DNA of 64,000 nucleotides from a candidate division WOR-3 bacterium (GCA_027053075.1 JALUEE010000033.1:1-64000); one strand, 5' to 3'; shown: positions 40,973 through 61,800, counted from the first letter of the stretch. Numbers and translations are program-made. Notes: generated from the sequence alone by a model not told the origin.

Positions 40973-41967
40973 TGCATAGATACTGGAGACCGCCGATAAA
41001 CTACCTTCTCCTGCCTTTCTCGGGACTTTACTGGTCAGGACTTCAGGCCTGGTATCTTTACGATAAGTTAAGAGGAAAAGTCAAATTTGATGCCTTTACT
41101 GTTGTGGTTGGGAACCTTACTGTGGGTGGGACCGGGAAAAGTCCATTTGTCTATCTTCTGGCAAAAATTCTAAGAGAAGAATTCAGGGTCGTGGTGATAA
41201 CAAGAGGCTATGGGCGGAAATCAAGTGACCCTGTGGTGCTGAGTGATAAGCTCCTCCCTGTTGAACTAACAGGTGACGAACCTTTGATGAACTTCATTAA
41301 ACTTGAGAAAAAAGTCCCATTTGTTATTTGTAAAGACCGCATAGAGGCTTACAAAATCGCAAAGAGGGAATTTTCTCCCCATGTTGTGATTCTTGACGAT
41401 GCGTTTCAATACAGAAAAGTTGTCCCGGATTTTTCATTCCTGGTATTTGATAAGAGATTTTTCATTATGAGCAGATTTTTGCTCCCTGCAGGGCCCATGA
41501 GAGAGCCTTTAAAGGCAGGAGAGAGGGCTGATGCCATAGTCTTGAATTACAAGGCGGGGAGGACCGGAGATGAGAAAATTTATCCAGATAAACCACACAT
41601 CCGCCTTCGCTATAAACCTGTGGCCTTAAGGCGGGCTGAAAAAATTTATGACTTCGATGAAATAGAGCGGGAAGTGACAGCTTTTGCAGGGATTGGTGAC
41701 CCTGAAAGTTTTCTTAAAACACTTGAGGGCGTCGGCTTCAAGGTTAAAGAATTCGAGCATTTTCCAGATCACCACTGGTACAAGCCAGAAGAAATCGAGA
41801 AAATCCTGAGTCCGGGTTTGCCGGTTATCACCACGGAAAAGGATTATATAAAACTCCCGTACACACTAAAGGACAAGATTTATGCACTTGTAATAGAACC
41901 GGAAATCGTGGAGGGGTTAGAAATCATCGAGAGCCTCAAGGAAAGGATCAGAGATAGTATCGGATGA
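40969..41967 (+). CDS. lpxK: Tetraacyldisaccharide 4'-kinase
   Basis: VGNLTVGGTGKSP, TRGYG, GDEP, LDDAFQY, LLPAGPMREP, FPDHH, TTEKD. Confidence 0.93.
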   Translation: MMHRYWRPPINYLLLPFSGLYWSGLQAWYLYDKLRGKVKFDAFTVVVGNLTVGGTGKSPFVYLLAKILREEFRVVVITRGYGRKSSDPVVLSDKLLPVELTGDEPLMNFIKLEKKVPFVICKDRIEAYKIAKREFSPHVVILDDAFQYRKVVPDFSFLVFDKRFFIMSRFLLPAGPMREPLKAGERADAIVLNYKAGRTGDEKIYPDKPHIRLRYKPVALRRAEKIYDFDEIEREVTAFAGIGDPESFLKTLEGVGFKVKEFEHFPDHHWYKPEEIEKILSPGLPVITTEKDYIKLPYTLKDKIYALVIEPEIVEGLEIIESLKERIRDSIG

Positions 41968-44900
41968 ATAGCCAGATTCTATGATCCTGGAAATAGGGGG
42001 CGACATCGTTGTAATTGTAATTGACCCCCAGAAGCAGGCTTTTCGAGAGGAAATACTCGAAATCAATACCCAGCGAGAATCCAAATTTTGTTCCCGGTTT
42101 AAAATACTGCGTCAGTGGCCCTCTCATATACTGGGCGCCTGCACTCCCGTAAAGTTTGAAAAAGAGATTATCTCTTTCCCGCTGAAGGCTCATTACGATG
42201 GCATTATTTGAGAAGAAAGTCGGTGAGAAGTATCCACCGTGCCCAATTGTATAATCGCCGAGATAAGACTTGAAGCTCATGAGGTAGAAATCAAATCCCA
42301 CTCTCAGCACATCGAGGTACATGGGCATTTTAAAGCTATAACCGACACGGAAAAGGCCTTCGTATTTATTGTTGTTATAGACCCTGATGCCCCTCAGAAC
42401 ACTGGTTCCAAGAATCATGGAGAGGTCCTTTGGAGGATGACGGAAAACGAGACCCAGCTCCCCACCTGTTTCCATCACTTTTCCGTGAAGTTTTCCAATT
42501 TTTGGGGCATACTCTCCTACATAAGCGAGATATGATTCATCGTTGGGCAAAACAAATCCTCGAAGATAAAATCCCCAGAAATCTGAGAGCAGGAAAGTAA
42601 ACCTGAGGTCACCTTTGAAATTTGTGCCGCCGGCAAATCCCATGGGTGTAATGCCGGCCATCAGGTAAAATGAGCCTGGTGTGAAAGGACCTTCAAAGGT
42701 CACCTGAGCGCCAATACCATCGTCCTGACTCACACCGTTTCCAGGCTCTTCAGCATCCGCTTGAATAGTCACTCTGGTGTTATAGAGAGGGAAGCTCACC
42801 TGAACAGGGAATGCCGGAAGCTCCAGATAACTTGTCCCTTTAGTTCCAGACTTCTGCCTGTAGTACGGTCCAAGCTGGATATATGCCCGAAGCTCACGCT
42901 GAATTTTCTCCTTGAATTGCTTAATGTAATAAATGGCCTCCTGTCGTCTGAGAACAAAGAAATTTTCAGGTTGAATGGCAGGCCCAAGGGAAAGGAGCGG
43001 AGGAAGCTGATTTTTGGAAATGTTTTCAATGCCAATCTCTTTGGCAATATTTAACGTGTCAGCTATAATGGCTTCCAGAGTGTCTTCTGGCAAAAAAGGG
43101 GGAAGGAATTCTTCACCTCCTTTTTTGGTTTCTTTATTGGAATTTAGCTCGGCAACCTCGAGGACTTTAAGGGCATCGTACTTTCTATTGAGAGAGTAAA
43201 GAATTTTTGCGTACTCAAGAGCTATTCTCGGATCGAGGCTACCCACGTTGAGCCGTTTAAGTATCCTGAGTGCCGAGTAATCTCTGCCAAGCCCCCTGTA
43301 GACCCTTGCAAGGTCAATTGCCACATCTTCATCATCTGGATTAAGCTGAAGGGCGTGTTCATAGAGTTTTGCCGCCTCATCCAACTGCCCATTGGCGGCG
43401 TAGAGGCCGGCAAGGCCTTTTAATACATCAATATTGTTTGGGTCAAGCTGATAGGCCTTCCTGTAAAGGACAAATGCCGTGTAGTACTTGTGCTTTTTCT
43501 TGTACTCCTCCGCCTTTTTAACAATGCGGTAGACCTCTACCTTTTTAATCTGCTCCTCAATCTCCTTTGACTTGTACCTTTTGTAAAGAGATATGAGGTA
43601 GGTGAGGGCTTCATCCTCTTTCTTGAGTTTTATAAGACTCCCCACCAGTCCCTGGAGAGCATCTTTGTTCGACGGATCAAGAACCAATACCTGGCTATAG
43701 AGTTTTCTTGCTTCCTCGTATTTTCCAAGGTCAAAATAGACACCAGCAAGTCCCAGTATAACACCGATGTCGGCAGGATTTTCCTGGTAAAGTTTCTGAT
43801 AAATCTCAAGAGCCTTCTCAAGTTTACCCCTGGATTTAAAGTACTCTGCAAGTTTTAATTTATCCGTGTATTTGATTTTGGCAATTTTTTGCAAAACTTC
43901 CGGGGACTTTGTGCGTTTGTATAGCTCCTCGTACACTTTTATAGCCTTATCAAGGTCACCACTGGCGTAAAGTGCATCACCGTATGCGCGCAGTAAGGTG
44001 GTGTCGTTTGGAAACTTCTGAAGTAACAGGGAAAATACGGATGCAGCCTCATCGTATTTTTTCATAGCCATGTAAACACCGGCGAGTCCACGAAGCAGGT
44101 CGAGGTTATCCGGTGCTATCTGCCGGGCTGCCAGGTAATACTTCAGAGCTTTATCATAATGCCCCTGCTTCTTTTCCTTTTCGGCCTCTTTAATGTAATA
44201 CTGAATCTGGGCCTGCTGAATGATCTTGATCCCGTCGGGGTCATTTATCAAATTGTGGCTTTTTATCAAATCAATTGCTGCCTGGTATTTTCCGAGGCCG
44301 AGCAGGGCCCATCCTTTTCCGATAATCGCATCCTTGTCCTCGGGATTAAGCTCGAGAATTCGGTTGTAGTACTCGATTGCCTTGGTGTCCTGCCCGAGTT
44401 CGTGGTAACATGTGGCAATACCGAGAAGGATCCGCTTGCTCGTTGGATTTTGCGCGAGCAATTTTTTATAAATCAGCAGGGCTTTTGCGTAGTTACCCTG
44501 ATTTTTGAGTTTTTCGGCCATTTCAACGCGGTTTTCTGCCTCAATTTCTTTGATCGCCTTAAGAACTTCTGCAGTCTGCTTGATCTTGTATGCCTTCCTG
44601 TAATATTTCAGAGCACTTTCCTTATCCCCGAGGGCAAGGTAGGCACCACCGAGTCCCACAAGGGCATAATAGTTTCTCGGATCCTTCCTCAGCACCCTCT
44701 TGTAATAGATTATGGCCTGGTCATACTGTTTTTGATTAATGTAGATGCCACCGATTCCGAGGTTCGCCCAGACATTCCCGGGGTCATACCTTAGAACAGA
44801 TTTGTACCAAGAGAGGGCGACGTCGGGCTTTCCCGCATTTTTATAGGCATCCGCTATCTTAAGACGAAGATTAACATCGTTGGGAAATTTCTGGAGAAGC

Positions 44901-45985
44901 TTCAGATAGATGGGGATCATATCAGGCCTGGCCTCCATCTTGATGACAGCGTCTCGGAGGCCTTTCAGGGCCTTCATCTCGTTTGGGTATTTCTCGAGAA
45001 TTCTACGGTAAATTTTGATGGCGTCGGCACGCCTTTCCGGGATATTCGAGAGAATGTGGGCATATTCAAGCTGGTAATCCAGGTTGTTTGGGTTTCTACG
45101 AACATACTCTTCAATCTCACTTAATAGCTCTCTTGCAGTTTTTGGATTTGACGATGCCACCTGGATGTATTCAAATTTTAGATTTTTATCATTTGGACGG
45201 TATTTGAGGGCCTTCTTGTAATACTCAATGGCCTTTGAGGTGAGACCCTGGGCTGCGTATATTCTTGCTATCTCAATTATGCTGTTTACATCATCCGGAT
45301 ACTTTGAGAGTATCCGTCGCAAATACTTAAGAGCCTTTGAGTAATTCCCAAGCTTTTCTTCTGTAACTGCAAGTCCGAACAGGGCATCTCTGTCGCCACC
45401 GGACTGCAATCCAACGAATATACTTTTTGCTTTGGTGTACTTCCCGGCCTGAAGCAGGGAGTATGCAAATTCAAGTCTGGATTTGTAAGTGAAGAGAGAG
45501 GGCTTCGTTTTCTCAACGTCCTCGAAATACTTCACCGCCTCTTTTCCCTTGCCCTCCCAGTAGAGAACTCTGGCAAGGTAGAGCTTTGCCATTATGTTTT
45601 TGGGATTCAGCTTAACAGTCGTTCTTAGCTCTTTTTCTGCATTTCGCAGATCTGATTTATAAATATACAATTGGCCAAGGAGGTAATGGGCATCGGCATC
45701 TTTTGGCCGCATTTTCAGATATTTTTTGAGTAATCTAATGGCCTCGCTCCATCCTGACTTTTTCGTGCTTAAAATTTCAGCGAGCTCTTTTAACCCATCC
45801 GGGTTGTTGGGATAGTATTTCAGCAGGTCTCTGTAGGCCTTTTCTGCGGCATCCAGCTTACCAGAGGCCTTCAGAGAGCGGGCAATTTTCAGTCTCACGT
45901 CAAGCCCGTAGATATCCCCCTTTGCTTTCCTGGGAGTCGCAGAGAATAGCATACTGAACATAAGAATTGACGCTATTATTTGCAT
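41948..45985 (-). CDS. bcsC: Cellulose export outer-membrane protein BcsC-like (long TPR array plus C-terminal beta-barrel)
   Basis: Signal peptide, about 900 aa of TPRs, C-terminal barrel with GHGGYFSP motif; bcs context; GGAGGT RBS at 45992-45997. Confidence 0.8.
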   Translation of the reverse strand: MQIIASILMFSMLFSATPRKAKGDIYGLDVRLKIARSLKASGKLDAAEKAYRDLLKYYPNNPDGLKELAEILSTKKSGWSEAIRLLKKYLKMRPKDADAHYLLGQLYIYKSDLRNAEKELRTTVKLNPKNIMAKLYLARVLYWEGKGKEAVKYFEDVEKTKPSLFTYKSRLEFAYSLLQAGKYTKAKSIFVGLQSGGDRDALFGLAVTEEKLGNYSKALKYLRRILSKYPDDVNSIIEIARIYAAQGLTSKAIEYYKKALKYRPNDKNLKFEYIQVASSNPKTARELLSEIEEYVRRNPNNLDYQLEYAHILSNIPERRADAIKIYRRILEKYPNEMKALKGLRDAVIKMEARPDMIPIYLKLLQKFPNDVNLRLKIADAYKNAGKPDVALSWYKSVLRYDPGNVWANLGIGGIYINQKQYDQAIIYYKRVLRKDPRNYYALVGLGGAYLALGDKESALKYYRKAYKIKQTAEVLKAIKEIEAENRVEMAEKLKNQGNYAKALLIYKKLLAQNPTSKRILLGIATCYHELGQDTKAIEYYNRILELNPEDKDAIIGKGWALLGLGKYQAAIDLIKSHNLINDPDGIKIIQQAQIQYYIKEAEKEKKQGHYDKALKYYLAARQIAPDNLDLLRGLAGVYMAMKKYDEAASVFSLLLQKFPNDTTLLRAYGDALYASGDLDKAIKVYEELYKRTKSPEVLQKIAKIKYTDKLKLAEYFKSRGKLEKALEIYQKLYQENPADIGVILGLAGVYFDLGKYEEARKLYSQVLVLDPSNKDALQGLVGSLIKLKKEDEALTYLISLYKRYKSKEIEEQIKKVEVYRIVKKAEEYKKKHKYYTAFVLYRKAYQLDPNNIDVLKGLAGLYAANGQLDEAAKLYEHALQLNPDDEDVAIDLARVYRGLGRDYSALRILKRLNVGSLDPRIALEYAKILYSLNRKYDALKVLEVAELNSNKETKKGGEEFLPPFLPEDTLEAIIADTLNIAKEIGIENISKNQLPPLLSLGPAIQPENFFVLRRQEAIYYIKQFKEKIQRELRAYIQLGPYYRQKSGTKGTSYLELPAFPVQVSFPLYNTRVTIQADAEEPGNGVSQDDGIGAQVTFEGPFTPGSFYLMAGITPMGFAGGTNFKGDLRFTFLLSDFWGFYLRGFVLPNDESYLAYVGEYAPKIGKLHGKVMETGGELGLVFRHPPKDLSMILGTSVLRGIRVYNNNKYEGLFRVGYSFKMPMYLDVLRVGFDFYLMSFKSYLGDYTIGHGGYFSPTFFSNNAIVMSLQRERDNLFFKLYGSAGAQYMRGPLTQYFKPGTKFGFSLGIDFEYFLSKSLLLGVNYNYNDVAPYFQDHRIWLFIRYYL

Positions 45986-46008
45986 ATGGGTACCTCCAAA
46001 GGTAAAAT
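45980..46008 (+). promoter_or_regulatory. Sigma70 promoter for leaderless bcsZ, overlapping the bcsC start codon and RBS
   Basis: TTGCAT(45980)-N17-TAAAAT(46003)-N7-ATG(46016). Confidence 0.6.
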
Positions 46009-46015
46009 ATAGACC

Positions 46016-47122
46016 ATGATACTCGTTAAGGCAATTATTTTTTTTCTAATGAGTTACCATTGCAACCAAAAAGATATACAGAAAATTTTAAAAGAATCAT
46101 GGAAAACCTACAAAGTTCAATTTATCCAGAAAGACGGCAGGGTCCTCGATAAATACAACGGAAATATAACCACGTCAGAGGGACAGGCCTATGCTATGTT
46201 CAGGGCAGTCCTCGCCAACGATAAGGCCACATATTACAGAGTTTTAAACTGGACTCTGGTGAATTTGAGAGAGCACAGAGGGGATTGGCTCTTTGCCTGG
46301 AAATGGGGAAAAGACAAGTCCGGTAACTGGGGGGTGCTCGATTCTAATTCTGCAGGGGATGCTGACCAGCTAATCGCCTTCGATTTAATACTTGGGTATA
46401 AAAAATGGCATGATGACTCTCTTAAGGCCATGGCCAGAAGAGTGCTCGATGACATCTGGGTGAAAGAAGTAGCCAAAGTTGGAGACTGGTACTACATTTT
46501 ACCCGGTGAGTGGGCAAGGGATATGAAAGATTACAAAATTAATCCAAGTTATTTCCTGCCCTTTGCCTACCCTTATTTTCAGAAGCTGGACGGCACCCGC
46601 CCCTGGGATACACTTATTGTTTCAACTTACAGGGTTCTTGATAAAGCATCCACATGGATCGGACTACCGGTGAACTGGGCATTTGTAAATTCAGAGACTG
46701 GCGAAATCTATATTGTCGATGATGATCCAACCGACAATACTTCGGACTTTGGATTTGACGCTGTGAGGGTTTTTCAAAATGTTTATCTGGATTATCATCT
46801 CTTTAAAAGGAAGGCTGCCATTTCCTACCTTTACTCCCAGAAATGGCTTATCTCTTACTGGAAAGCCCGGGAGATGATACCTGCTGAGGTAACGGTTTAC
46901 GGATTTCCTCGTAAGAATTTTGAAGCAGTATCTATCTATGGCGGAGTTTTACCCGCTATCTATGTAATTGATAAGCGTGCTTTTGTGGAAATTTGTAAAA
47001 AGAAAATCCTGAAGGCATACAAAAAAGGCATCTTTGGAGATCCAAAAGATTATTATGCACAAAATTTAGTGTGGTTTTCCCTCGCCCTTATATTCTCCAG
47101 CTTTACTCTTCCTCTTCCATAA
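46016..47122 (+). CDS. bcsZ: GH8 endo-1,4-beta-glucanase
   Basis: TTSEGQAYAM, NSAGDAD, NPSY, FDAVRV, YYAQNL; signal peptide or lipobox-like N-terminus. Confidence 0.88.
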   Translation: MILVKAIIFFLMSYHCNQKDIQKILKESWKTYKVQFIQKDGRVLDKYNGNITTSEGQAYAMFRAVLANDKATYYRVLNWTLVNLREHRGDWLFAWKWGKDKSGNWGVLDSNSAGDADQLIAFDLILGYKKWHDDSLKAMARRVLDDIWVKEVAKVGDWYYILPGEWARDMKDYKINPSYFLPFAYPYFQKLDGTRPWDTLIVSTYRVLDKASTWIGLPVNWAFVNSETGEIYIVDDDPTDNTSDFGFDAVRVFQNVYLDYHLFKRKAAISYLYSQKWLISYWKAREMIPAEVTVYGFPRKNFEAVSIYGGVLPAIYVIDKRAFVEICKKKILKAYKKGIFGDPKDYYAQNLVWFSLALIFSSFTLPLP

Positions 47123-49421
47123 GTCTCCTCTTCTTGTACTCATCCACAAGTGCTCTTATAACCTTGTAGAGGAGGTACAGCACAATGATCATGAGAATGG
47201 AGAGAATCAGCACGTGCCTGGCGAAGAAAAATCTCAATCTCTTGAAGAAGCCAACATGGCCAACAATTCTCTTGTGACCAATATCAATGGACTTGACCTC
47301 AAAGGAAGAGTTGACCGCTACAATATTTCCTTTCTTGAATTTTGTCAGGATTTTAGGCATTAAAAGTGCCTCAAGAGGATACTGTATATTTTTCCTGTTT
47401 CTGGAATAGGCGATGAGGACCGTCTTGTCCTTATTGTATGGAGATATAATCTGCTCCAGGAAACCAGCAGAATCATAGTCGTAGGCCTTTATCACCTCGA
47501 TTTTAACACCCTCTTCTCCACCGCCAAAAATTCTTTTCCAGAAACTTCTCTTTTTCACAGTAACGTAGGTTCTAAGACTTTTGACCCCATACTTGGTTAT
47601 GTAGAGATATTTTCTGTCAGATAACTCTCGTATAAACGAGTTGTTTGCCTCGTTGCCAAATGTGATAAAGTGGTAATTTTTAAGCATTTCTTCGCCGCTG
47701 AGCTGAGCCGGTGTCAAAACCTTAAACTGGATGGATTGCGGAGAAGTTTCTTTCCCAAAGTAAGTGACAAGGAGCAGAAGATTGTGTATGTCATCATAGT
47801 CATACTTATCAGGCAAAACAAAGACCACGTCCTTCATGTTTTGCCAGAGTGTGTACGGGAAACCTGCGTATTTGATCAGACTAACATCGGGCATCTCGGT
47901 GAAGTATTCACGATCCATTTTGATTGTAGAGCTCGCATGGATGGTTCCCCATATCTGCTTATCAGAGACCCTTCTACAGGGATCGTAATTAATGGGGAAG
48001 AGGTGGAAAACGACAACCATGTGGTTTCTGGCCCCCAGAAGCCATGTTGGGAGTGGTACATTCAAAGTGGCATAGGATTCACCCGACTTATTTCTCAATA
48101 GCTTCGAGACCACCGAGCGATTATTTATTATCACCTCAACCATGGATAATCTACCGTCCAGACCTGCACTGTAGCTGTAAACTAACTTCAATTTAGCGCC
48201 CTTGGTGAGAAACTGAGCGTCCGGCTGTGTAAACAGGTTTATATTCACAGGCTTGGCATAAAAGCCACGAACAGTGGTGTCGGACATCCCGAGCTCTGAG
48301 AGTTCAAACTTTGTCTTTAATGGTATGTATCCCTTTTGCTGCCGATATTTAAGGGTATCCACCATGTTTACATCATAAATAACAGCTCTTGGGCCTGAGA
48401 GAATTTTATTACCTGCAAATAGAGCCTTTGCTGCCTTTAATACACCCTGGGGATCCATTCCTGTTACAATTAAAACGGCCCTCTTGGTGTTTTTAGGGTC
48501 ATTCTTGACCATGATGACACCTGTTCCAGGGGACACGCCAGCACCCTTCTTGGGGAAAAGCTCATCTGTAGAGGCAAACTTCAAAATCTCCGGGTTTTCT
48601 TTAATAGTTCCTACAAGGATGATATCCTTATTGGTCTCGGATGACGATTTCAAAATATTGACCTTTACGTCCCTAAAGGAAATGTAATTGGAGAGGATGA
48701 AATCGATGTAGGACATAGCCTCAATGGTCGAGACCGTGGGTGTAGAAGGCACCACAAAATTGATTTCTCTTGGCCCATAGTCCCTTTTATCAAAGAACGG
48801 GTATGGGAAAACCCCAAGATTAACGATTGGAGAAATGGGACGATATTTAAACAGAATGTACGATTTCTTGGAGACCTTTGTCCATAGAGCAGGTGAAAAG
48901 GGGTCCTCACAGTCCTCTGTGTAGTGCTGATCAACTAAGAAGCTCAGGGTGTTGTAGTCATCCAGTATGTAAGGTGGAATGGGCAGAACGATCTCTGTTG
49001 TTACGGAGTTTTCTTTTGTCAACGTTATGGATTTAAGGGTTATGTTGTTGATTGCGATAGAAAGGTGTGACATGCTTGGGAGAAGTGCCTCAGAATGGTT
49101 AAAAAATATGTGTATTTCTGTACCTTCCAAGACATTCCATCTTTTGGGTTTCGTAAATGTTAGCCTCTCAGTAGCGTGCAATCCCTTTAAATTCAGGTCT
49201 TTTTTCACAAACAGGTCTTTTTCAAATGTGGCTCTATAGGTTGAGACTCCTGCGACTCTGGGAGCCTTTTTAACTGATTTTGGAGGTGCAGCCGGTTTAC
49301 TCTTTTTGACAACTTTTTTACGGTATGTAGAACGGTAATAAGGTTTCTTACGAACGGTAACTGCATTGAGCATCGAACCTGTTAAGAAAAACAAAACCAT
49401 CAGGTATAATACCTTCCTCAT
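47103..49421 (-). CDS. bcsB: Cellulose synthase periplasmic co-subunit
   Basis: Signal peptide, CEDPFSPALW motif, FPYPFFD, GFPYT, C-terminal TM anchor; directly after bcsA; start 49421 with AGGAGG. Confidence 0.88.
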   Translation of the reverse strand: MRKVLYLMVLFFLTGSMLNAVTVRKKPYYRSTYRKKVVKKSKPAAPPKSVKKAPRVAGVSTYRATFEKDLFVKKDLNLKGLHATERLTFTKPKRWNVLEGTEIHIFFNHSEALLPSMSHLSIAINNITLKSITLTKENSVTTEIVLPIPPYILDDYNTLSFLVDQHYTEDCEDPFSPALWTKVSKKSYILFKYRPISPIVNLGVFPYPFFDKRDYGPREINFVVPSTPTVSTIEAMSYIDFILSNYISFRDVKVNILKSSSETNKDIILVGTIKENPEILKFASTDELFPKKGAGVSPGTGVIMVKNDPKNTKRAVLIVTGMDPQGVLKAAKALFAGNKILSGPRAVIYDVNMVDTLKYRQQKGYIPLKTKFELSELGMSDTTVRGFYAKPVNINLFTQPDAQFLTKGAKLKLVYSYSAGLDGRLSMVEVIINNRSVVSKLLRNKSGESYATLNVPLPTWLLGARNHMVVVFHLFPINYDPCRRVSDKQIWGTIHASSTIKMDREYFTEMPDVSLIKYAGFPYTLWQNMKDVVFVLPDKYDYDDIHNLLLLVTYFGKETSPQSIQFKVLTPAQLSGEEMLKNYHFITFGNEANNSFIRELSDRKYLYITKYGVKSLRTYVTVKKRSFWKRIFGGGEEGVKIEVIKAYDYDSAGFLEQIISPYNKDKTVLIAYSRNRKNIQYPLEALLMPKILTKFKKGNIVAVNSSFEVKSIDIGHKRIVGHVGFFKRLRFFFARHVLILSILMIIVLYLLYKVIRALVDEYKKRRLMEEEE

Positions 49422-49440
49422 CGTTTCCTCCTTTTTGTGC

Positions 49441-51564
49441 TTACTTTTTAGATTTAACCATATGTGAAACAACCCTGACCGGGGTCGTTAGCACTCTGCC
49501 CAGTGATTTTAGTGGATTATCCTCCTCAGCCTCAGTATAAATCCACTTATCCGCAGGCGAGTATATAAGCTGAATAATATCTTTTCTGGTCTCAATATCC
49601 TCATCTGTGAGATTAAATTTGAGTCCTGCTATAGTGGAATTTTCCAGCTTAACGTACCAGGCAACCTCGGCCTTCACAAAAACCCTTTTGCCCTGTTTAC
49701 CGAAAATTATGAGGTCAACATTTTTAGGTAAATCAATGGCCTTGTTGAGAGTGATTTTAGCACCACCTTCAGATAAATCCTCCACCTTTCCAATATAACC
49801 CTTGCTTCGTATCCAGACCTGACAGGGCAGGTCAACCTCCACCCTGTAGTACCGTCGTCGCTGAGGTCTCTCAAATGCCACGAAGGTCGAGGCAAGGACT
49901 ATGAAGAAGTTAAACAGATTCCAGAATCCGTTGATGAGCACAGCATCAATCTCATCAGGATGAGTCTTCCAGCGAATGGGCGTAAAGATAATACCTAAAA
50001 TGGTGAGTGCAAGCAGGGCAAGAAGTGGCCTTACCGGGCGGATGTCAAAGTAGTATTCATCTTCTTTGGCCACTTTGGGGGTAACGACAAATCTTCCTTT
50101 TCTCGGATTTATCAGAGTGACAGTAGAAATTACAAGAGAATAGTATGAGCGCGCCGTTTCGTAAATCTCCGTCCAGAAAGAATGTCTCACGTTCTTTGAC
50201 ATGAGAGAACCTGTTAGGACAGCACCTATAAGGTGGGGGAACGCGTAAGCCACAACATCAAGTGCTGTACCAACAAGAGGGTAAATACCGAACAACAGGT
50301 ATGAGAGGGGGGCAAGAATAAAAACAATTCTTGCATAACCAGAGAAAAAGTGAATCATGGAGTTCAGGTATGCAAGACGCTGAGGGATGGTTAGTCCCTT
50401 TTTAAACAATGGATTATCAAGCCTGAAAATTTGAATCATCCCTCTCGTCCATCTACCCCTCTGTGAAACGTAATAAGCATATCTATCAGTGGCAATACCA
50501 GCAGCCTGAGGAATGCCAAGATAAACTGAATTCCATCCCCGTGCGTGCAGTTTAATGGATGTATGCGCATCCTCTGTAACAGTATCCTGAGCTATACCAC
50601 CTATTTCCTCAAGTGCTTTTCTTTTGAGAACAGCACATGAACCGCAGAAGTAAACCGCGTTCCAGAGGTCCTTCCCGGGCTGAACGAGGTGGTAAAAGTA
50701 CTGCTGCTCCTCAGGTAACACCTTCTCAAGATATAGATTCCTCTCGTAAACATCAGGATTGTAGAAATGATGTGGAGTCTGAACGAGGGCCAGCTTTGGG
50801 TCCTTCAGGAAGAATCCCACAGTCATCTGAAGGAAACTCCTTGTGGGCACATGGTCGGCATCAAAGATCGCGATAAGGTCACCGTTAGTCAATTTCAGGG
50901 CGTGGTTTATATTGCCGGCTTTAGCTCCTTCGTTGGTCTCACGGGTTATATAGTGAGCACCAAGCTCCTCGGCCAATTTCTTCACCTCGGGTCTACGACC
51001 GTCATCAAGCACATAGACCTTCTTTTTCGGATAGTCGATTGCAAGCGCTGCAGCAATGGTTGGCCTCAAAACTTCCAGGGGCTCATCGTAAGTAGGAATG
51101 AAAATGTCCACTGTCGGCCACTTACTGATATCCTCAGGAAGTGGCACGGGCTTTCGGTTTATAGGCTCAATGATCTCAAAATAACCAAGGATAAGTACGA
51201 GGAAACCATAAAGCTCTGCAAGTAAAAGTATTACACTGACAATAAAACTTGCAGTGTAATAGGTGTTTATAGTCTCGGTAGCCCTCCAGTAGAAGTATCT
51301 GAATGAGAGGGCAAAGCTCAATGTAAGCATAAAGATACGCTCTTTTGGGAACCACTTATAAATGATCAGCATGAGGAGCAAAATCGGGGTTGATACAATG
51401 AGCTGCTCCTTCCAGTAAAGTTTAAAAGTGATAAAGTAGAGACTGACTATAATTGTTAGAAGATAGATAACAACTTTAAGCCACGGATATGTTCCTACTG
51501 ACCTGTAAATTAGGAAATCGAATCTTCTTGCGCCTTTCTGGGCTTTCCGGAAGAGGGCGGTCAT
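49441..51564 (-). CDS. bcsA: Cellulose synthase catalytic subunit with PilZ domain
   Basis: IPTYDE, LDDG, KAGN, FDADH, QTPH, FCGS, TED, QRGRW, gating loop FVVTPK, PilZ RRYYR and DLSEGG. Confidence 0.93.
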   Translation of the reverse strand: MTALFRKAQKGARRFDFLIYRSVGTYPWLKVVIYLLTIIVSLYFITFKLYWKEQLIVSTPILLLMLIIYKWFPKERIFMLTLSFALSFRYFYWRATETINTYYTASFIVSVILLLAELYGFLVLILGYFEIIEPINRKPVPLPEDISKWPTVDIFIPTYDEPLEVLRPTIAAALAIDYPKKKVYVLDDGRRPEVKKLAEELGAHYITRETNEGAKAGNINHALKLTNGDLIAIFDADHVPTRSFLQMTVGFFLKDPKLALVQTPHHFYNPDVYERNLYLEKVLPEEQQYFYHLVQPGKDLWNAVYFCGSCAVLKRKALEEIGGIAQDTVTEDAHTSIKLHARGWNSVYLGIPQAAGIATDRYAYYVSQRGRWTRGMIQIFRLDNPLFKKGLTIPQRLAYLNSMIHFFSGYARIVFILAPLSYLLFGIYPLVGTALDVVAYAFPHLIGAVLTGSLMSKNVRHSFWTEIYETARSYYSLVISTVTLINPRKGRFVVTPKVAKEDEYYFDIRPVRPLLALLALTILGIIFTPIRWKTHPDEIDAVLINGFWNLFNFFIVLASTFVAFERPQRRRYYRVEVDLPCQVWIRSKGYIGKVEDLSEGGAKITLNKAIDLPKNVDLIIFGKQGKRVFVKAEVAWYVKLENSTIAGLKFNLTDEDIETRKDIIQLIYSPADKWIYTEAEEDNPLKSLGRVLTTPVRVVSHMVKSKK

Positions 51565-52355
51565 TTTTTGATCACCTGCTCAAGAACAGCCTCTCTGGCT
51601 TTTATTTCTTTGGCCAATAATCTGAATGCCCGCGCTCCTGCTGACCCTGGCTCATGATAGATGACAGGTTTGCCGTACGCAAGGGCTTCTGCAATATTCA
51701 GGTCCTTGGGAATCTTGGTTTTAAATGGGATGTTTTTATACTTCTGCTCAAGGACCCTGGCCGTTTGAACCATCAATTCTTCACGGCCGTCGTACATGTT
51801 TATGATTATACCAAGTACCCGTAAAGTTGGTTTTAATTTCTCCTTAATGTCTTTAAGAAAAACAAAAACCGCTGGAAGTGTCCTGTATGCGAGGGGTTCG
51901 GATTGAACAGTAATCATCACCGCATCCGAGGCCACAACAGCACTTCCCGTAATGCTGTTAAATGTTGGCGGCGTATCAATAAGAATGTAATCGTACCGGT
52001 CTTTTACCCCGGTATACTCAAACCAGTTTTTGAGCCTATCGAGGTTTTTTGATACAGATGATATTTTCCACTCAAGGTACGGATTCACCGGACCACTGGG
52101 GATTATATCAATGTTCTGGAAAGGGGTTTTCTTTATCACATCCTCAGGTCGGACATTCTTTAAAAGGATATTAAAGCTACCACTCTCCAGCTTTTCCTTG
52201 TATAGACCTATGCCCAGATAGAGAGAGTTTTGAGGGTCAAGATCAACTAAGAGAACTTTATCGCCTGATTCCGCAAATGCCGCTCCAAGATTTATTACAA
52301 CGGTTGTTTTACCCACTCCACCTTTTTTGGACAGTATAGCGTAGATTTTTCCCAT
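51561..52355 (-). CDS. bcsQ: ParA/MinD-family ATPase in the BcsQ position
   Basis: KKGGVGKTT, DLDPQ, IDTPP, EALAYG; overlaps the bcsA start by 4 bp; bcsQ assigned by context. Confidence 0.75.
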   Translation of the reverse strand: MGKIYAILSKKGGVGKTTVVINLGAAFAESGDKVLLVDLDPQNSLYLGIGLYKEKLESGSFNILLKNVRPEDVIKKTPFQNIDIIPSGPVNPYLEWKISSVSKNLDRLKNWFEYTGVKDRYDYILIDTPPTFNSITGSAVVASDAVMITVQSEPLAYRTLPAVFVFLKDIKEKLKPTLRVLGIIINMYDGREELMVQTARVLEQKYKNIPFKTKIPKDLNIAEALAYGKPVIYHEPGSAGARAFRLLAKEIKAREAVLEQVIKK

Positions 52356-52364
52356 ATCACTCCT

Positions 52365-52781
52365 TTACTCAAAGGAGAAGAAGTCTTTAGCAGTTTTCGC
52401 TGACTTCTTTCTCTTCTCTATAACCTTTTCAACGGCTTTCCTTCCCTCTTCCTCTTCAATAAGAGATTCAAAGAATTTTCTCGCGGTTTCTTTGCCACCG
52501 AGTCTCACTTCTTCTATCTTCTCCTCGATAATCTTTTCCTTCACCTCAGGTGGTAGCTCACGGAATACCTCCTCGAGGATCTTCTCAATAGGAGCGTTCT
52601 CCTGCAACAAGGGGTAAAGAATCTCTTCTTTAGATTTCTCCTCTTCCTCGGTAAATGACCTGTAGGGAAAATCTTTAATCTTATACTCCTCTGTCAGCTC
52701 CTTTACATCGAGGTCTTCCGATATTTCAATCGGAGGCGGCTCCTCTTTACCGCGCTTTTTTAACTTCTTCTTTATAAGCAT
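52365..52781 (-). CDS. BcsR/BcsP-like small cytoplasmic protein
   Basis: Residues 25-61 (DVKEL...Y.I.D..Y..F...E........YPLLQE) match the BcsR-type pattern ending WPLLxE (recalled, not searched); immediately upstream of bcsQ. Confidence 0.6.
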   Translation of the reverse strand: MLIKKKLKKRGKEEPPPIEISEDLDVKELTEEYKIKDFPYRSFTEEEEKSKEEILYPLLQENAPIEKILEEVFRELPPEVKEKIIEEKIEEVRLGGKETARKFFESLIEEEEGRKAVEKVIEKRKKSAKTAKDFFSFE

Positions 52782-53444
52782 TTAAATCACCTCTTTTGCC
52801 TCTCCGAGACTGATTCCCAGCTTCTTGAGTAGAAGGGTATAATCAGGATTCTCCGCGAGTATCCTCTCAATTTCTTTGATATTTTTGGAGGTGCTCACAA
52901 GGAAGATAAATCTGCCTTCTCCTCCCTTGAAGCTGGTGATCTCAAGCGCTCTGATACCCTTTCCTATGAGCGATGAGAAAACTCCTGTAAAAAACCCCGA
53001 AAGGAGCATAGCTGTTGGTAGAACCTCGCTACTCTTGCCGTAAGCAAGCGGAGAATAAACTGGAAGAATATAAAACTGCTTCTCTTTTTTAGCCTTGGAT
53101 AGGTCAATCTCTGCCCATCTTTTGAGAAGGAGGTAATCGTTCAGGATTTTCAGGAAAAGCTCAACCTCAAGGTCTGTAATGGATTCTCCATAGTTAGAGG
53201 TTATGAAGTTGTCCATCCTTTTGTAGAACTTCTCTCCCCAATTTGCACCAATTTCATAGAGAATCTGCATTCCCTCTTCGTATTCTGTCAGCACACCCGC
53301 GATAGCGTCGAGGAAATCCTCGGTAACCATGATTTCCACAGGGCTGTTAAAAAACTGAATCCTTCCGCTTTTAATAGCCACGGGAAGCGGTCTTTTCTCC
53401 GCCGACTCCTCTACATCTCCCAGATCCCAAAAAGACTCTTTCAT
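52782..53444 (-). CDS. V4R-like domain protein, first gene of the bcs operon
   Basis: LYEIGANWGEKF, W..IDL and SGFFTGVFSSLIG patterns typical of V4R proteins; no cysteines. Confidence 0.6.
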   Translation of the reverse strand: MKESFWDLGDVEESAEKRPLPVAIKSGRIQFFNSPVEIMVTEDFLDAIAGVLTEYEEGMQILYEIGANWGEKFYKRMDNFITSNYGESITDLEVELFLKILNDYLLLKRWAEIDLSKAKKEKQFYILPVYSPLAYGKSSEVLPTAMLLSGFFTGVFSSLIGKGIRALEITSFKGGEGRFIFLVSTSKNIKEIERILAENPDYTLLLKKLGISLGEAKEVI

Positions 53445-53464: not shown

Positions 53465-53494
53465 AATTTAAATTGATAGCGTCTTTTAAGTCAA
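53465..53494 (-). promoter_or_regulatory. Candidate sigma70 promoter for the bcs operon
   Basis: TTGACT-N18-TAAATT followed by an AGGAGAGGAG RBS. Confidence 0.5.
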
Positions 53495-53497
53495 GCT

Positions 53498-53959
53498 TTA
53501 TTCTAATATTTTGCGGTATTTGAAAAATATCCTTGCCCGCATTTCGCGCAGTAGCCACTTGCCATGCGCAATGTCGTAAGCTGTTAAGAACATATTCCCC
53601 ATAAATCCTGTTAAAAGAAGGGAAATACTTAAATTTATTTTCCTCCTTTGCTTTCCAATATCTGGATCAGGGTTTGTTACTCCTGAATAGAGTGAAGCTA
53701 TGCCATAAACAAGTGCCCCGGATAATACCATGCGGCCACCCAAAATCATAGCCCCCGTGAGCTTCTTATCGAGCATAAAATGCATATAACCGGGGATGAA
53801 TGCTGAAAAAGCGTAATCATCGTAGCTGACCTTCCAGATGAGAATTTTGTACTCCCTGTAGGTCATTTTCGGGGGAACATAAGGAAGGGTAAAATGGTTT
53901 CCGTAGAGCAAATCCCCCTGATTAAAAAATATGCTTAAAATGAATAAAACGTTGAACAT
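53498..53959 (-). CDS. Hypothetical membrane protein
   Basis: Hydrophobic N-terminus, SAFIPGYMHF motif, two TM-like segments; own promoter TTGACT-N17-TAGAAT at 53969-53997. Confidence 0.65.
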   Translation of the reverse strand: MFNVLFILSIFFNQGDLLYGNHFTLPYVPPKMTYREYKILIWKVSYDDYAFSAFIPGYMHFMLDKKLTGAMILGGRMVLSGALVYGIASLYSGVTNPDPDIGKQRRKINLSISLLLTGFMGNMFLTAYDIAHGKWLLREMRARIFFKYRKILE

Positions 53960-54008: not shown

Positions 54009-54125
54009 GCTTGTCTAAAAATGTTCCCCCTCCCATCCTCCCCCACGCACTTCGTGCGTGGGGGAGGAGACAGGTGGGGGAGATTCCTGTTAGAATTCCA
54101 ATAAATTGAAATTTTTTAAACCAGC
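54009..54125. mobile_element. MITE-like element, subfamily B copy 2
   Basis: Ends GCTTGTCTAAAAA / TTTTTAAACCAGC (11/13); 15-bp stem 54036-54068 with TTC loop; colinear with 10326-10447. Confidence 0.7.
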
Positions 54126-57624: not shown

Positions 57625-58809
57625 ATGGAGAAGAATAAAACGATTACTGTTTCCCCGTTAAAACTCGCACTTTCGTTCCTGAAAATAGGCCTCACTGCCT
57701 ACGGGATTGCCATTCTTCAGCAGATGAGGGCAACTATTTTAGGTAACAGATGGCTTTCCCCTGAAAAATTTGAGGAAGGCCTTGCTATGGTTCAGCTCTA
57801 TCCAGGCCCCATTATGTTTGACCTTGGCACCTATTCCGCCTATGAAATCTGTGGATTCACCTGTGCTGCCCTCGCCATGTTCTCCTTCCTTCTCCCTTCA
57901 TATCTCCTGATGGTAGCACTCTCCTACGTTTACTTCAAATTTGGCAACGTCTCGTGGATTCACCCTTTATTTCTCGCCCTTGAAGCCATGGTTGTGGGTG
58001 TAATTACTCATATTTTTATCGACTTTGTCAAAAAATATGCCCTCAGCTGGCAGGGGATTCTGATCGCAACTCTCTCCTTTGTCTTAATGATCTTTCAGGT
58101 GAGTGCTATCCTTATAATCTTCCTCGCTGCCCTGCTTTCCATGATCATTATTACGAAAATTAAAAATCCTCGAAAGAATGTGAAAGCTTTTGAAACTTCA
58201 TCTCACACTGGAAGTATCGAGAAAGTTGGTTTTGGAGCGACTGCACTCGTATTCGTTGGTTTAATTGTACTCACTATCATCTCTCCAAAGGGCTCTGCTG
58301 CCGCTCTTACAACCTCTATGTTCAAAATCGGAGCAGTGGCCTTTGGAAATGCCTTCACCATCATGCCCCTGATGCAGCAGGAGGTGGTCTCAATTCATCA
58401 CTGGCTAACCCTGAAGCAGTTTTCGGACGGAATAGCCCTTGGGCAAATAACCCCAGGTCCATTTTTGATCACAGCCGTATTCATTGGCTATAAAGTTTCG
58501 GGAATCCCGGGAAGTGCCCTTGCTGCATTCGCAATATTCTTCCCGAGTTTTTTCTATACCCTTATCGCAACCCTCACCTATGCAAAGATCAGAAACAACA
58601 TGTATGTAAAAAAGGCTATAAAAGGCATTCTATCCGCGTTTACCGGCATGCTACTTTATGTTTTGATAAGTATTGGAAAGTTTTCGCTTAAAAACCCAGT
58701 CGCCATCATCTGGGCCCTATGGGCATTTGTAGCGGTCCGATTTCTGAAGCTAAACCTGCTGTGGGTTTTCTTTATCGGACTCACCTTCACCGTTTTCTTT
58801 TACATCTAA
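57625..58809 (+). CDS. chrA: Chromate ion transporter (CHR family, long-chain)
   Basis: Two homologous halves FLKIGLTAYG / FKIGAVAFG, with QLYPGP / QITPGP motifs. Confidence 0.85.
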   Translation: MEKNKTITVSPLKLALSFLKIGLTAYGIAILQQMRATILGNRWLSPEKFEEGLAMVQLYPGPIMFDLGTYSAYEICGFTCAALAMFSFLLPSYLLMVALSYVYFKFGNVSWIHPLFLALEAMVVGVITHIFIDFVKKYALSWQGILIATLSFVLMIFQVSAILIIFLAALLSMIIITKIKNPRKNVKAFETSSHTGSIEKVGFGATALVFVGLIVLTIISPKGSAAALTTSMFKIGAVAFGNAFTIMPLMQQEVVSIHHWLTLKQFSDGIALGQITPGPFLITAVFIGYKVSGIPGSALAAFAIFFPSFFYTLIATLTYAKIRNNMYVKKAIKGILSAFTGMLLYVLISIGKFSLKNPVAIIWALWAFVAVRFLKLNLLWVFFIGLTFTVFFYI

Positions 58810-61800
58810 TTCAGCATGATCAATTTCCTGATTAAAACCTTCCCTTGAGCTTTAACTTTAATAAAATAAACACCTTCTTTAAGGTTACCCCTAAGCTCGT
58901 AAGTCTTTATCCCTGGAGTAAAACTCTCGATCTTCTTGAAAATTGCTCTACCACCTGCATCATAGACCACAATCTCGACATCTTCGCTTTTTGGAATAGA
59001 AAAGGTCAGTTTTGCGCTGTTGTGGGCCGGATTGGGGGCAACACTAAGGTCAAATCTGTGAGGAATTATATCGGATTCTCCAACATTTACGAGTATCACC
59101 CTGAAGTGGTAGATACTGTCCTCTGGATCATAGGCCTCGTTGGGGTCGTGGGCATTGTCTATTGCGTAAATAAAGTAGTTTACCGTCGTTGTGTCCTGAA
59201 CCTGCGGGATAAATGCATGGTAAAAGTTTGCCGTATCGAGAACCATATCCAGACTGTCGAAAATTCGTGGCGATTCACCAAAGGCATAGAAGAGCCTCAC
59301 TGCCCTCAGCCCATTTTCATCAAATACACGGGTTCTGATCTCATAGGGCCCCATAAAGCTTGTATCGTGCCATATAGTTGTGGACTCGATAACTGGTGGT
59401 GTAACATCAATGGCAAAAGTCCAGACATCTGAAGAGCTCCAGTTGCCTGCGTCATCGTATGCCTTCACCCACCAGGTGTACCACCCTTCATGTAGAGTGG
59501 TCTCGTAATAGTAACTTGTATCTGAAATTTCAGCAAAAATTGTGGTATCCGTTGAGTCTGCGAGATAAAGTTCATAGAAAGTTTGCTTGTTACCATCCTT
59601 TTTAACCAATTTCTCTGTGGGATGCCAGCAGAACCAAACTCCGTAAGGATCAGAGGAAATGCTCGAATCTTCTGGGAAAATGAGCACCACAGGCTCAGGT
59701 GGGATCGTGTCCACGTAGAAAACCGCAATCTCGCTGAAACTCACATTCCCCGCGCTATCATAACTCCTTACCTGCCAGTACCATTCTCCATTTCCTATAG
59801 AGGTAAGCATATAGGTGGTATCCATCATGGTTGTGTCAATTTCTGGATTCATCATATCCGGGTTGTCTGCAATGAGAAAACGATAACCGGCAAGTCCACT
59901 AAGTGTGTCGTGTGACGGCATCCAGCTGAACTGATAGGGGAAAGATGTGATATAATAACCGTACCCGGGATAAAGCAAGATGGAAGCTGTCGGTGGCTCA
60001 TTGTCCACCCTGAAGCTATCCCTAAGCGACCAATCTGAAGTCCTGCCTCCATATAATGTCCTCACATGCCATGTATATGAACCAGTGGGCAATGTCACAA
60101 TAGCTGAGTCCTCGCTCACCGTATCCCTTATTAACGGGTACCCATTAACCATCACCTCCACTATGTATGAAAGAGTGTCCTTCGTTGATACCTGCCATCT
60201 CAGTGTCACCGGACTCCTCGTCCATGTGTTTCCAATAGGTGAAACCAATGTTGGCACCGGGAGTGGTGCATAGTGGTGGAAAATACGAATACCACTCGGA
60301 GACATATTCCCCACACTATCAAAACTCTCCACCATCCAGTACCAGTCTCCATAGTTAAGGGAGGTGAGAGTGAATGTCGTATCAGAGAGTGTGGTATCAA
60401 CAACAGGGTTTGCCATGCTGTCATTATCCGCAACAAGAAGTCGGTACCCTGCAAGACCTGCTAAAGTATCAGTTGATGATGACCAGATAAAGTGGATAGT
60501 TCCACTGATTGTATCTTCATCTGGAGGTGAAATGAGATTTGGTGAAGTCGGACCTGTGGTGTCTCCTACGAGCATCCACGGTGAGGTCCACTGGCTTGAA
60601 TTACCCTGATAATCAACCTCTCTCACGCGCCAGAGGAGCCTGCCTTCAGGAATATTTAATGTCAGCGTTGTATCCGCAAGCGTGTCATCATAAAAAGTGC
60701 TCGTGAAACTGGAATCATTTAAAGAAAGCTGGAAATTGAAGAATCGATTGGACTTATTCCTCAGCTCTAACGTTTTTCTCAGCCTAACAATTTCTGTTTT
60801 TACGAAATTCTTACTGCCCGATCTCCATACAAACTGCATATTCTGGAGATTGTTGGTCATTGAATCGTTGTGAGGTAAAACCAGCTCTGGAACAGGTAAA
60901 ATATGCCTTATTACAAACCAGGCCGTATCAGAAACTGCCACGTTACATGCACTATCAAAGGCAGTAATAGCGAAATAAAATGTCCCGGTGGTGAGGATTA
61001 GGGTCGCTGTGGTATCGGTTGCCTCAATCATCCCAGATGCCGCGCCCCAGTAATTTAGCTGATACATCCGTATTCCAAAGTTGTCAGATGAGCTCGACCA
61101 TATTACCGTTACCGTATCATTGTACAGGGTGTCATTTTGAGGGGATATAATGGCGGGTGCCGATGGTTTTGTTGTATCAACGGCAAATCTTGCTGGATCT
61201 GACCAATCTGATGTGCCAGCCTGATTGGAAGCACGCACATGCCAGTAAAAATGTCCCTCGGGGAGAGTCATCAAAGCCGTTGTATCCGTGGTTACAAGCG
61301 TATCAATCACATTGTTGAAAAAGCTATCCGTGGCTATTTGCAGAGTGTAGTTTACACTGGTCTTCTTATCTGGTGCTTCATCGGCCCTGGCTATACTTTC
61401 AATGGCTTTGAACACTTTTACCCCCGGTGACCAGACAAATCTCACCGTGTCGTAATTAAAAATTGTGTCAAGTGGTGCAAGTATTTGAGGCACAGGTGGT
61501 GGATTTAGAATTCCCACATAAAAATGCAGTGTATCACTGTACCTCTGGTCAAGCAGACTATCTTCTGCAACAACAAACCACCAATGCCATCCGTTTTGAA
61601 GATTAAAATCCACCTGCCATATCGTATCAGTTACCGTTGCCACCATCTGGCTATCAATAAACACGTGATAGCCGGTTATACTTGAAAGTATGTCAGTTGC
61701 CTGGTGCCAGATAAGGTTGATGGTGTCACTGGTTCCAAAAGTACTTGAGTCGGAGGGTGAGATAAGATTAAAGTGGCTAATCCCATTCATTATCCTTATA

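Follow-up and report, generated by a model that had tools for sequence, protein, structure and literature searches.

Which type of bacterial cellulose secretion (bcs) system resides in a candidate division WOR-3 bacterium, and what role may be assigned to the two unannotated genes that precede its core? The question is raised by a stretch of 64,000 nucleotides (GCA_027053075.1, JALUEE010000033.1:1-64000), called here the window, in which seven intact genes span positions 41948–53444: bcsC, bcsZ, bcsB, bcsA, a bcsQ-like gene, and two genes encoding proteins of 138 and 220 amino acids (aa). The shorter product resembles the BcsR and BcsP adaptors, the longer one has a V4R fold. The favoured reading, to which we give a probability of about 0.6, is that the cluster makes cellulose and that the V4R protein, the adaptor and the BcsQ-like ATPase form a cytoplasmic scaffold like that of BcsD, BcsP and BcsQ, with the V4R protein replacing BcsD. 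Functions are read from sequences and structure models.

The cellulose cluster

The catalytic subunit of cellulose synthase, BcsA (707 aa; 49441–51564, minus strand), scores 776.7 bits against TIGR03030, above the cut-off of 699.1, and features the motifs DDG187, DADH235, TED330, QRGRW368 and FVVTPK492, as well as a PilZ domain (PF07238, E 4.2e-15) with RxxxR (RRYYR570) and DxSxxG (DLSEGG596) motifs. E. coli BcsA is aligned end to end, from residue 30 here and 152 in E. coli, and the long N-terminal extension of E. coli type is missing. BcsB, the periplasmic co-polymerase (47103–49472, minus strand; PF03170, E 1e-101), measures 789 aa from the first TTG, but translation probably begins at the Met at 49421; hydrophobic segments are found at the N-terminus and, as a C-terminal membrane anchor, at about residues 745–778. 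BcsZ, a GH8 endoglucanase of 368 aa (46016–47122, plus strand; PF01270, E 1.8e-41), has at the catalytic positions E55 and D248, which align with solved GH8 enzymes; the Asp position is Ala in one solved GH8 variant. BcsC, the outer-membrane export pore (1345 aa; 41948–45985, minus strand), is made by TPR repeats, matched by TPR families, and a C-terminal barrel (BCSC_C, PF05420, E 4.1e-27, residues 1079–1344), and is 78–81% identical among congeners. The bcsQ-like gene (51561–52355, minus strand) encodes a ParA/MinD ATPase of 264 aa with an intact Walker A motif. A reading of the DNA made earlier from the sequence alone (the sequence-only reading) had reported bcsA, bcsB, bcsZ, bcsC and this ATPase as a complete system, and family models and motifs confirm that these genes are present and intact.

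bcsZ lies on the plus strand and the other six genes on the minus strand, and the cluster is therefore not one operon. The gene layout is identical in the four congeners fetched, as far as their contigs reach, and bcsZ is inverted in all four. The bcsC/bcsZ and bcsZ/bcsB junctions are bridged by contigs of independent runs, and no joint falls within the cluster. A misassembled or phase-variable inversion of bcsZ is thus ruled out by congener layout and bridging contigs. In comparisons with two congeners, at saturated synonymous sites, all seven genes show low nonsynonymous divergence (pN 0.056–0.153; synonymous divergence, pS, 0.80–1.0), whereas lpxK and the next open reading frame (ORF) reach pN values of 0.26–0.27. 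Because of their low pN, the two unannotated ORFs are regarded as real genes, constrained like the core.

The V4R-fold protein, the adaptor and the ATPase

The sequence-only reading left the two genes unannotated, and Pfam and NCBIfam indeed provide no match for either; both may nevertheless be assigned, as a V4R-fold and a BcsR/BcsP-like protein. The 220-aa protein (52782–53444, minus strand), a candidate for the role of BcsD, also found no match in a sequence search of PDB. Atlas placed it with clusters of stand-alone V4R proteins (score 0.95), and a profile search retrieved 35 distant relatives; 24 of the 33 scanned match PF02830 at E<=0.01, and 3 of the 33 also match Cellsynth_D, one above the cut-off of that family. 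The structure model (mean predicted local distance difference test score, pLDDT, 81.8) matches PoxR (Z 12.0, root-mean-square deviation (rmsd) 3.4, 157 aligned residues), DmpR (Z 11.5) and three BcsD structures (Z 9.7–10.9), including those from Dickeya (Z 10.9, rmsd 2.5, 127 aligned) and Orrella (Z 10.6); TRAPP subunits were matched as well. Identity to the BcsD structures is 15–16%, and the profile of the protein aligned by hhalign to that of four annotated BcsD proteins gives E 4.8e-5 and a probability of 68%. By modelled fold and sequence kinship the protein is therefore placed in the V4R family, and BcsD itself shares the V4R/TRAPP fold (PMC10933270). Stand-alone V4R proteins (PF02830), a group here comprising the products of paired genes in cyanobacteria and myxobacteria, the domains of PoxR and DmpR, and TRAPP Bet3, have the same fold and length, and the stand-alone proteins feature the same G-x2-WG, WG, GFF-x-G-x-FS pattern. 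The window protein differs from them in being encoded by a single-copy gene tied to bcs genes, which are missing from the paired loci examined, and in having no cysteine, hence none of the zinc-binding cysteines of sensor-type V4R members.

The 138-aa gene (52365–52781, minus strand) is located directly before the bcsQ-like gene, as is bcsR. Its product is made by a putative N-terminal domain of BcsR type and a Glu/Lys-rich tail, the composition being 24% Glu, 17% Lys and 6% Pro; Pro accounts for 10–15% of BcsO references and for 12% of a Myxococcota counterpart (genome G566, see below). Residues D25, L29, Y33, I35, F38 and Y40 occur at BcsR spacing, and YPLL (56–59) at the offset of the BcsR WPLL. 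E. coli BcsR activates BcsA via D21, L25, F29, L31, I34 and Y36 (PMC11470070). A hidden Markov model (HMM) built from three proteobacterial BcsR-type proteins alone ranked the adaptor at the top of 12,269 genome frames (E 0.011; next 0.078), and hhalign against BcsR-type proteins gave E 3.4e-4 and a probability of 38%, together a moderate degree of support. Only these two comparisons are independent of the window protein: the six-position motif pattern, which counts 2 matches in a background of 3064, was written with the protein in view and is not blind, and the extended pattern was written after the match had been seen. Atlas returned no usable match. On these sequence grounds, the protein likely carries a BcsR-like N-terminal domain.

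The Walker A motif of the ATPase reads KKGGVGKTT. The protein passes the PF06564 cut-off (59 bits; cut-off 21.3), remains below that of TIGR03371 (88.6 bits; cut-off 157.85), and is 89–91% identical in congeners. The canonical Walker A had been taken to set this ATPase apart from E. coli BcsQ, in which the motif is GVRGGVGTTT (PMC8892547). The distinction fails, since annotated type I BcsQ proteins from Enterobacter kobei and Kozakia also feature KGGVGK, and both Walker A lysines are lost in the Myxococcota copies of genomes G318 and G566. A further Myxococcota BcsQ (L028:6515-7387), in a bcsQABZC locus free of V4R genes, has a degenerate Walker A and a short N-terminal extension resembling the BcsR motif, and could possibly be a BcsR-BcsQ fusion.

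The same gene set in Myxococcota

In the V4R tree, the WOR-3 proteins have a sister clade of five members (support 96/87). A profile of the two clades found matches in 11 of 401 sampled Myxococcota genomes and in 4 of 182 genomes of one class, and the three best matches (G318, G675 and G566) are all inside bcs loci. In G318 and G675 the order is bcsA, a membrane ORF, bcsB, inverted bcsZ, bcsC, V4R gene, adaptor gene, bcsQ; G566 has the same order from bcsB on, where the contig ends. These loci thus contain the gene set of the WOR-3 cluster, but the triplet follows bcsC. In two metagenome fragments (L054 and L055) a V4R gene is followed by the adaptor motif, and in L054 a BcsC-like end lies upstream (E 4.5e-5). 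As a control, 11 other V4R loci were inspected in 8 Myxococcota genomes; bcsA, bcsB, bcsZ, bcsC and the adaptor motif are missing from all of them. No V4R gene was found near bcs genes at the Myxococcota locus L028 or at 7 cyanobacterial bcsA loci, and a BcsA scan of genome contigs yielded few loci of use. The match in G715 lies on a 2.5-kb contig with no context, and G575 was left out of the locus comparison.

BcsB is found in 77 of the 182 genomes of the class, and the V4R type is therefore a minority. Of the 50 top-ranked Myxococcota bcsB loci, 3 have an inverted bcsZ, and these coincide with the three that carry the V4R gene; bcsZ is co-oriented in 39 and missing within 1.5 kb in 7, and one locus has no BcsB match. 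The three genomes are kin, and may reflect one event; the match between the Myxococcota and the WOR-3 layout, in turn, needs shared descent. Where the sequence-only reading had proposed an accessory module peculiar to this system, we find a triplet remotely like BcsD, BcsR/BcsP and BcsQ, common to WOR-3 and three Myxococcota genomes. The loci form a small cross-phylum subtype, whose triplet most likely corresponds, remotely, to the BcsD-BcsP-BcsQ scaffold of type I systems.

Other elements were noted in the same survey. A conserved ORF of about 215–240 aa, with an N-terminal CxxC...CxxC pattern and one membrane segment, separates bcsA from bcsB in Myxococcota (L080:8858-9508 in G318, L107:925-1689 in G675) and is not in the WOR-3 cluster. 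Paired V4R genes followed by a ParA-like ATPase gene, in loci with no bcs genes (L085 in G475, L087 in G311), are instances of a V4R-ParA module elsewhere. High-scoring BcsB loci with no bcsZ in G316, G334 and G322 were dropped, as neither bcsA nor a V4R gene lies beside them. Those of G316 and G334 (L159-L162) encode strong BcsB homologues after a TPR protein and an ORF of approximately 1100 aa, with no bcsA or bcsZ match found nearby, and possibly represent another secretion system using a BcsB subunit.

Distribution and origin of the cluster

Full-length BcsA was found in 5 of 61 genomes searched, all of this genus, and in none of the 55 other genomes of the order and class; 22 further genomes give partial GT2 matches alone (29–37%). 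BcsB is confined to one genus, with 6 positive genomes among 272 of the phylum (0 of 266 outside), and the V4R gene is found in 4 of 251 (0 of 245 outside the genus). BcsA is at most 49–51% identical to proteins outside the genus, and in the trees it forms a long, deep branch with unresolved placement. The approximately unbiased (AU) test (41 of 135 rows used) rejects its grouping with the type I clade (p 2.6e-10; 3 type I references) as with the type II clade (p 1.9e-5); nesting of BcsA in a proteobacterial operon type, the finding by which the sequence-only reading was to be disproved, is thus rejected for both. The BcsB tree (13 rows) and the BcsZ tree (12 rows) join WOR-3 with Myxococcota (support 100/100 and 98/98, respectively); two type III rows could not be aligned and were dropped from the former, for which the program also warns that long branches meet. 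The G+C content at third codon positions in the cluster (0.44–0.51) is close to the genome median (0.46).

These data suggest that the cluster was likely gained by an old transfer into the ancestor of one WOR-3 genus; the transfer would have occurred long ago, because the base composition now matches that of the host. The deep-branching, and hence old, WOR-3 system that had been supposed is disfavoured by a BcsB confined to one genus and by BcsB and BcsZ proteins that group with Myxococcota.

Predicted promoters and transcription units

A bidirectional sigma-70 promoter is predicted at the bcsC/bcsZ junction (45980–46034, both strands), in and around the 30-nt gap between the start codons, a distance found in the window and in all four congeners. 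On the plus strand, TTGCAT-17-TAAAAT is located 7 nt upstream of the ATG of bcsZ, which lacks a ribosome site, as in leaderless transcripts; on the minus strand, TTGCCT-17-TATATT is followed by a GGAGG ribosome site (45997–45993) for bcsC. The two divergent sites have overlapping -10 boxes, and all 5 genomes retain both sites despite saturation at synonymous positions. By the same rule 16 overlapping promoter pairs are found genome-wide, 2 of them between divergent genes as counted in a crude gene set. Bidirectional promoters are reportedly widespread in bacteria. By sequence, leaderless starts are frequent in this genome. In the 639 genes that begin with ATG and have free DNA upstream, matches to the -10 box peak 6–9 nt before the ATG (86, versus about 6 per position at greater distance), TTG is recurrent at a spacer of 17 nt in leaderless-type genes, and a Shine-Dalgarno motif precedes 2 of the 79 genes with a -10 box at 6–9 nt versus 286 of the 639 overall.

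A third predicted sigma-70 promoter (TTGACT-18-TAAATT; 53465–53494, minus strand), whose two boxes are conserved in all 4 genomes that have sequence there, would serve the genes from V4R to bcsB. The cluster is thus predicted to include three units, V4R-adaptor-bcsQ-bcsA-bcsB, bcsZ and bcsC. An ORF upstream (53498–53959, minus strand; 153 aa), which matches no Pfam or NCBIfam family, is the neighbour of the V4R gene in all 4 genomes whose sequence extends that far. It was rejected as part of the cluster, having its own predicted promoter, 57–60% identity across the genus and a pN like that of lpxK.

Host and predicted product

The WOR-3-like host proposed from the sequence is borne out by AsnS, for which all 9 organism-named matches among the best 120 homologues belong to WOR-3/Hydrothermia. 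Thermophily, previously viewed as possible, is now likely, as a full-length reverse gyrase is present; by a formula based on composition, an IVYWREL content of 0.429 would correspond to about 67 C. Close relatives cover all 30 bins of the region in four runs, each from a different study, and three of the runs bear a hydrothermal-vent label.

The genome is 95% complete. Genome-wide searches gave no match for BcsE and BcsG, found in the E. coli control, nor for the MBOAT acyltransferase (WssH), found in three control genomes; BcsF was not searched genome-wide. No genome match to the Pfam family of BcsD (Cellsynth_D, PF03500) was found at E<=0.1, a search in which no control genome passed the cut-off and a positive control is therefore missing. 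The cluster contains no GGDEF gene. Six GGDEF domains are found elsewhere in the genome, together with motif matches in one EAL and four HD-GYP proteins, and cyclic di-GMP (c-di-GMP) signalling is therefore available in trans. The statement that the cluster lacks bcsE, bcsG, wss acetylation genes and a diguanylate cyclase thus holds, for BcsE, BcsG and MBOAT genome-wide. As none of these three was found, unmodified beta-1,4-glucan, as previously suggested, is the likely product predicted from the gene content.

Comparison with known Bcs systems

Type I and hybrid systems with BcsP(O,H), BcsD and BcsQ (Orrella, Dickeya, Enterobacter, and BcsHD in Gluconacetobacter) share with the cluster the bcsA, bcsB, bcsC and bcsZ core, a protein with the BcsD fold, an adaptor with a probable BcsR-type N-terminus encoded directly before bcsQ, KGGVGK in the BcsQ or BcsQ-like ATPase, and the absence of bcsE and bcsG. 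They differ in that the BcsD slot is occupied here by a 220-aa V4R-family protein with no PF03500 match, the adaptor is rich in Glu and Lys rather than in proline, BcsA falls outside the clade, and bcsZ is inverted, back-to-back with bcsC. The E. coli type II system (bcsRQABZC-bcsEFG) has the same R-Q-A-B-Z-C order by position, and the same D, L, aromatic, Y and PLL spacing in BcsR; in contrast, the window has no BcsE/BcsG, no long N-terminal BcsA domain, no equivalent of BcsA R792, an inverted bcsZ, an extra V4R gene and a BcsA outside the clade. The BCSC_C barrel and the BcsQ-like ATPase set it apart from type III systems, in which BcsK replaces BcsC and cytosolic regulators are missing, and the absence of MBOAT acyltransferase (WssH) from the Wss systems for acetylated cellulose. 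By gene content, the cluster would work like a type I system with a BcsP-D-Q scaffold, yet by the features above it falls outside types I, II, III and Wss.

The machine itself is not of a new kind, as non-proteobacterial cellulose loci, among them those of thermophiles, have already been published (PMC10086821, PMC9693552, PMC8892547, PMC7112194), as the bcsQ-AB-C locus of Acidobacteriota (PMC9693552) and the bcs loci of Aquifex aeolicus and Hydrogenothermus (PMC10086821). The loci of Acidobacteriota, Aquifex, Hydrogenothermus and Thermosynechococcus share with the window cellulose synthesis outside Proteobacteria; a V4R or BcsR/P module is not described for them in the accessible parts of the publications on which the comparison is based, Aquifex being compared by description alone. 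No publication that links V4R proteins with bcs operons, or cellulose synthase with WOR-3, came up in a literature search; its scope did not extend to the operon classification of 2015 or to the description of BcsP-BcsD scaffolds, whose tables and supplements may list this type of operon.

A putative scaffold and its alternatives

In the scheme proposed, c-di-GMP made by unlinked diguanylate cyclases would reach the PilZ domain of BcsA, genes and motifs being present. As known for these families, polymerisation and extrusion of the glucan would fall to BcsA and BcsB, trimming in the periplasm to BcsZ, and export to BcsC. If the adaptor acts as BcsR, BcsP and BcsH do, its BcsR-like N-terminus would bind both the dimeric BcsQ ATPase and the rear face of BcsA, and its tail would bind an oligomer of the V4R protein, clustering and stabilising the synthases. 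A single unit would express the V4R, adaptor, BcsQ, BcsA and BcsB genes; bcsC and bcsZ would be transcribed in opposite directions from the overlapping promoter, which would couple the levels of pore and hydrolase. In published systems, BcsP proteins have N-termini similar to BcsR and draw BcsD into cytoskeletal assemblies (PMC11470070); filaments of BcsH and BcsD are cytosolic (PMC9757748).

Several results weigh against a scaffold of this kind. Protein and genome scans found no Cellsynth_D match for the V4R protein, the phenol sensors PoxR and DmpR are its top structural matches, about level with BcsD, and a shared fold by itself shows no function. The adaptor has no Pfam match, and NCBIfam is also empty; its proline content is unlike that of the proline-rich BcsP and BcsH, and HMMs of short motifs fail to link Myxococcota adaptors, WOR-3 adaptors and E. 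coli BcsR. In E. coli, BcsR D21 is flanked by two arginines of BcsA, and at the position of one of them, R792, the WOR-3 BcsA has a proline; R367 is conserved, as R242. The ATPase is excluded from the group of six sampled proteobacterial BcsQ proteins (92/94), and is nearest by path to the ParA of the host itself. The best trees do not group BcsA with the Myxococcota V4R clade, a grouping that the AU test does not reject (p 0.10), and tree references are thin, with no Aquificota or named Acidobacteriota operons.

Some of these points would fit a V4R protein acting as a small-molecule sensor, like the domains of PoxR and DmpR, which switches the synthase via adaptor and ATPase with no scaffold. 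About 160 residues are matched in those sensors versus 127–130 in BcsD, the 220-aa protein has extensions not found in BcsD proteins of 150–160 aa, and its relatives are stand-alone V4R proteins. PoxR, however, has a four-cysteine zinc site (PMC10933270), which a cysteine-free protein lacks; the fit to BcsD is tighter (rmsd 2.5–2.8 versus 3.4–3.7), and in two phyla the V4R gene adjoins a BcsR/P-like gene and bcsQ, known partners of BcsD. We hold a pure sensor to be rather unlikely, and sensor and scaffold roles can coexist. Vertical inheritance of an ancient WOR-3 system, lost in all other lineages of the phylum, would account for the long BcsA branch, the low BcsA identity outside the genus and the host-like base composition; it is improbable, as BcsB and the V4R gene are missing outside the genus and full-length BcsA in the rest of the order and class, and as gene set and bcsZ inversion are common to a subset of Myxococcota. 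Slightly more improbable still is a product other than plain cellulose, either a different beta-glucan or cellulose modified by unlinked enzymes. Other polysaccharide loci reside in the genome, which is short of complete, and the BcsF and AlgX/AlgJ-type families fell outside the searches; against this stand the TIGR03030 score, the end-to-end alignment to E. coli BcsA, the GH8, BcsB and BcsC partners, and the failure to find BcsE, BcsG and MBOAT while positive controls matched.

The scaffold reading can be extended, tentatively and with the odds against it, to the view that V4R, adaptor and ParA are an early form of the BcsD-BcsP-BcsQ cytoskeleton. A general positioning module would have been recruited to cellulose synthase, proteobacterial BcsD would descend from it, and WOR-3, Myxococcota and perhaps Aquificota would share an undescribed bcs type, in which arrayed synthases make ordered cellulose at about 65–70 C.

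Other loci in the window and the genome

All 6 genomes of the genus have weak BcsB-like genes, which were found in no other genome of the phylum. One (PF03170, E 4.9e-13) resides in a second polysaccharide locus of the host genome (G000:C86:20113-28195), where translations, read by eye, suggest a WecB-like epimerase, a deacetylase-like protein, a TPR/outer-membrane protein and an NfrB-like GT2 protein, the BcsB-like match alone coming from a family search; another (G000:C4:31260-33167; 21% identity, E 1e-6) is isolated, by uvrB-like and phosphate-transport-like genes. In the window, a short intergenic element at about 54020–54080, where four runs show high depth and numerous loose ends, is probably a copy of a dispersed repeat. 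An Ig/FN3 protein of 1717 aa, whose C-terminal sorting domain is type IX-like, is encoded at 58806–63959, and 2104–5928 gives a weak match of PorU-like kind.

Implications

Typing of Bcs systems relies on bcsD, bcsE/bcsG or bcsK, and typing based on profiles would label this cluster as accessory-free; a BcsD-like role may hide behind unannotated V4R proteins. The cluster provides an intermediate, in gene context, linking BcsD to the V4R/TRAPP family, and makes the origin of the cellulose cytoskeleton testable. The back-to-back predicted promoter of bcsC and bcsZ is a simple model for coupling of export pore and hydrolase. As the source is likely a thermophile (reverse gyrase; about 67 C), its synthase and putative scaffold are candidates for heat-stable components, of use in structural work and in the synthesis of cellulose in vitro.

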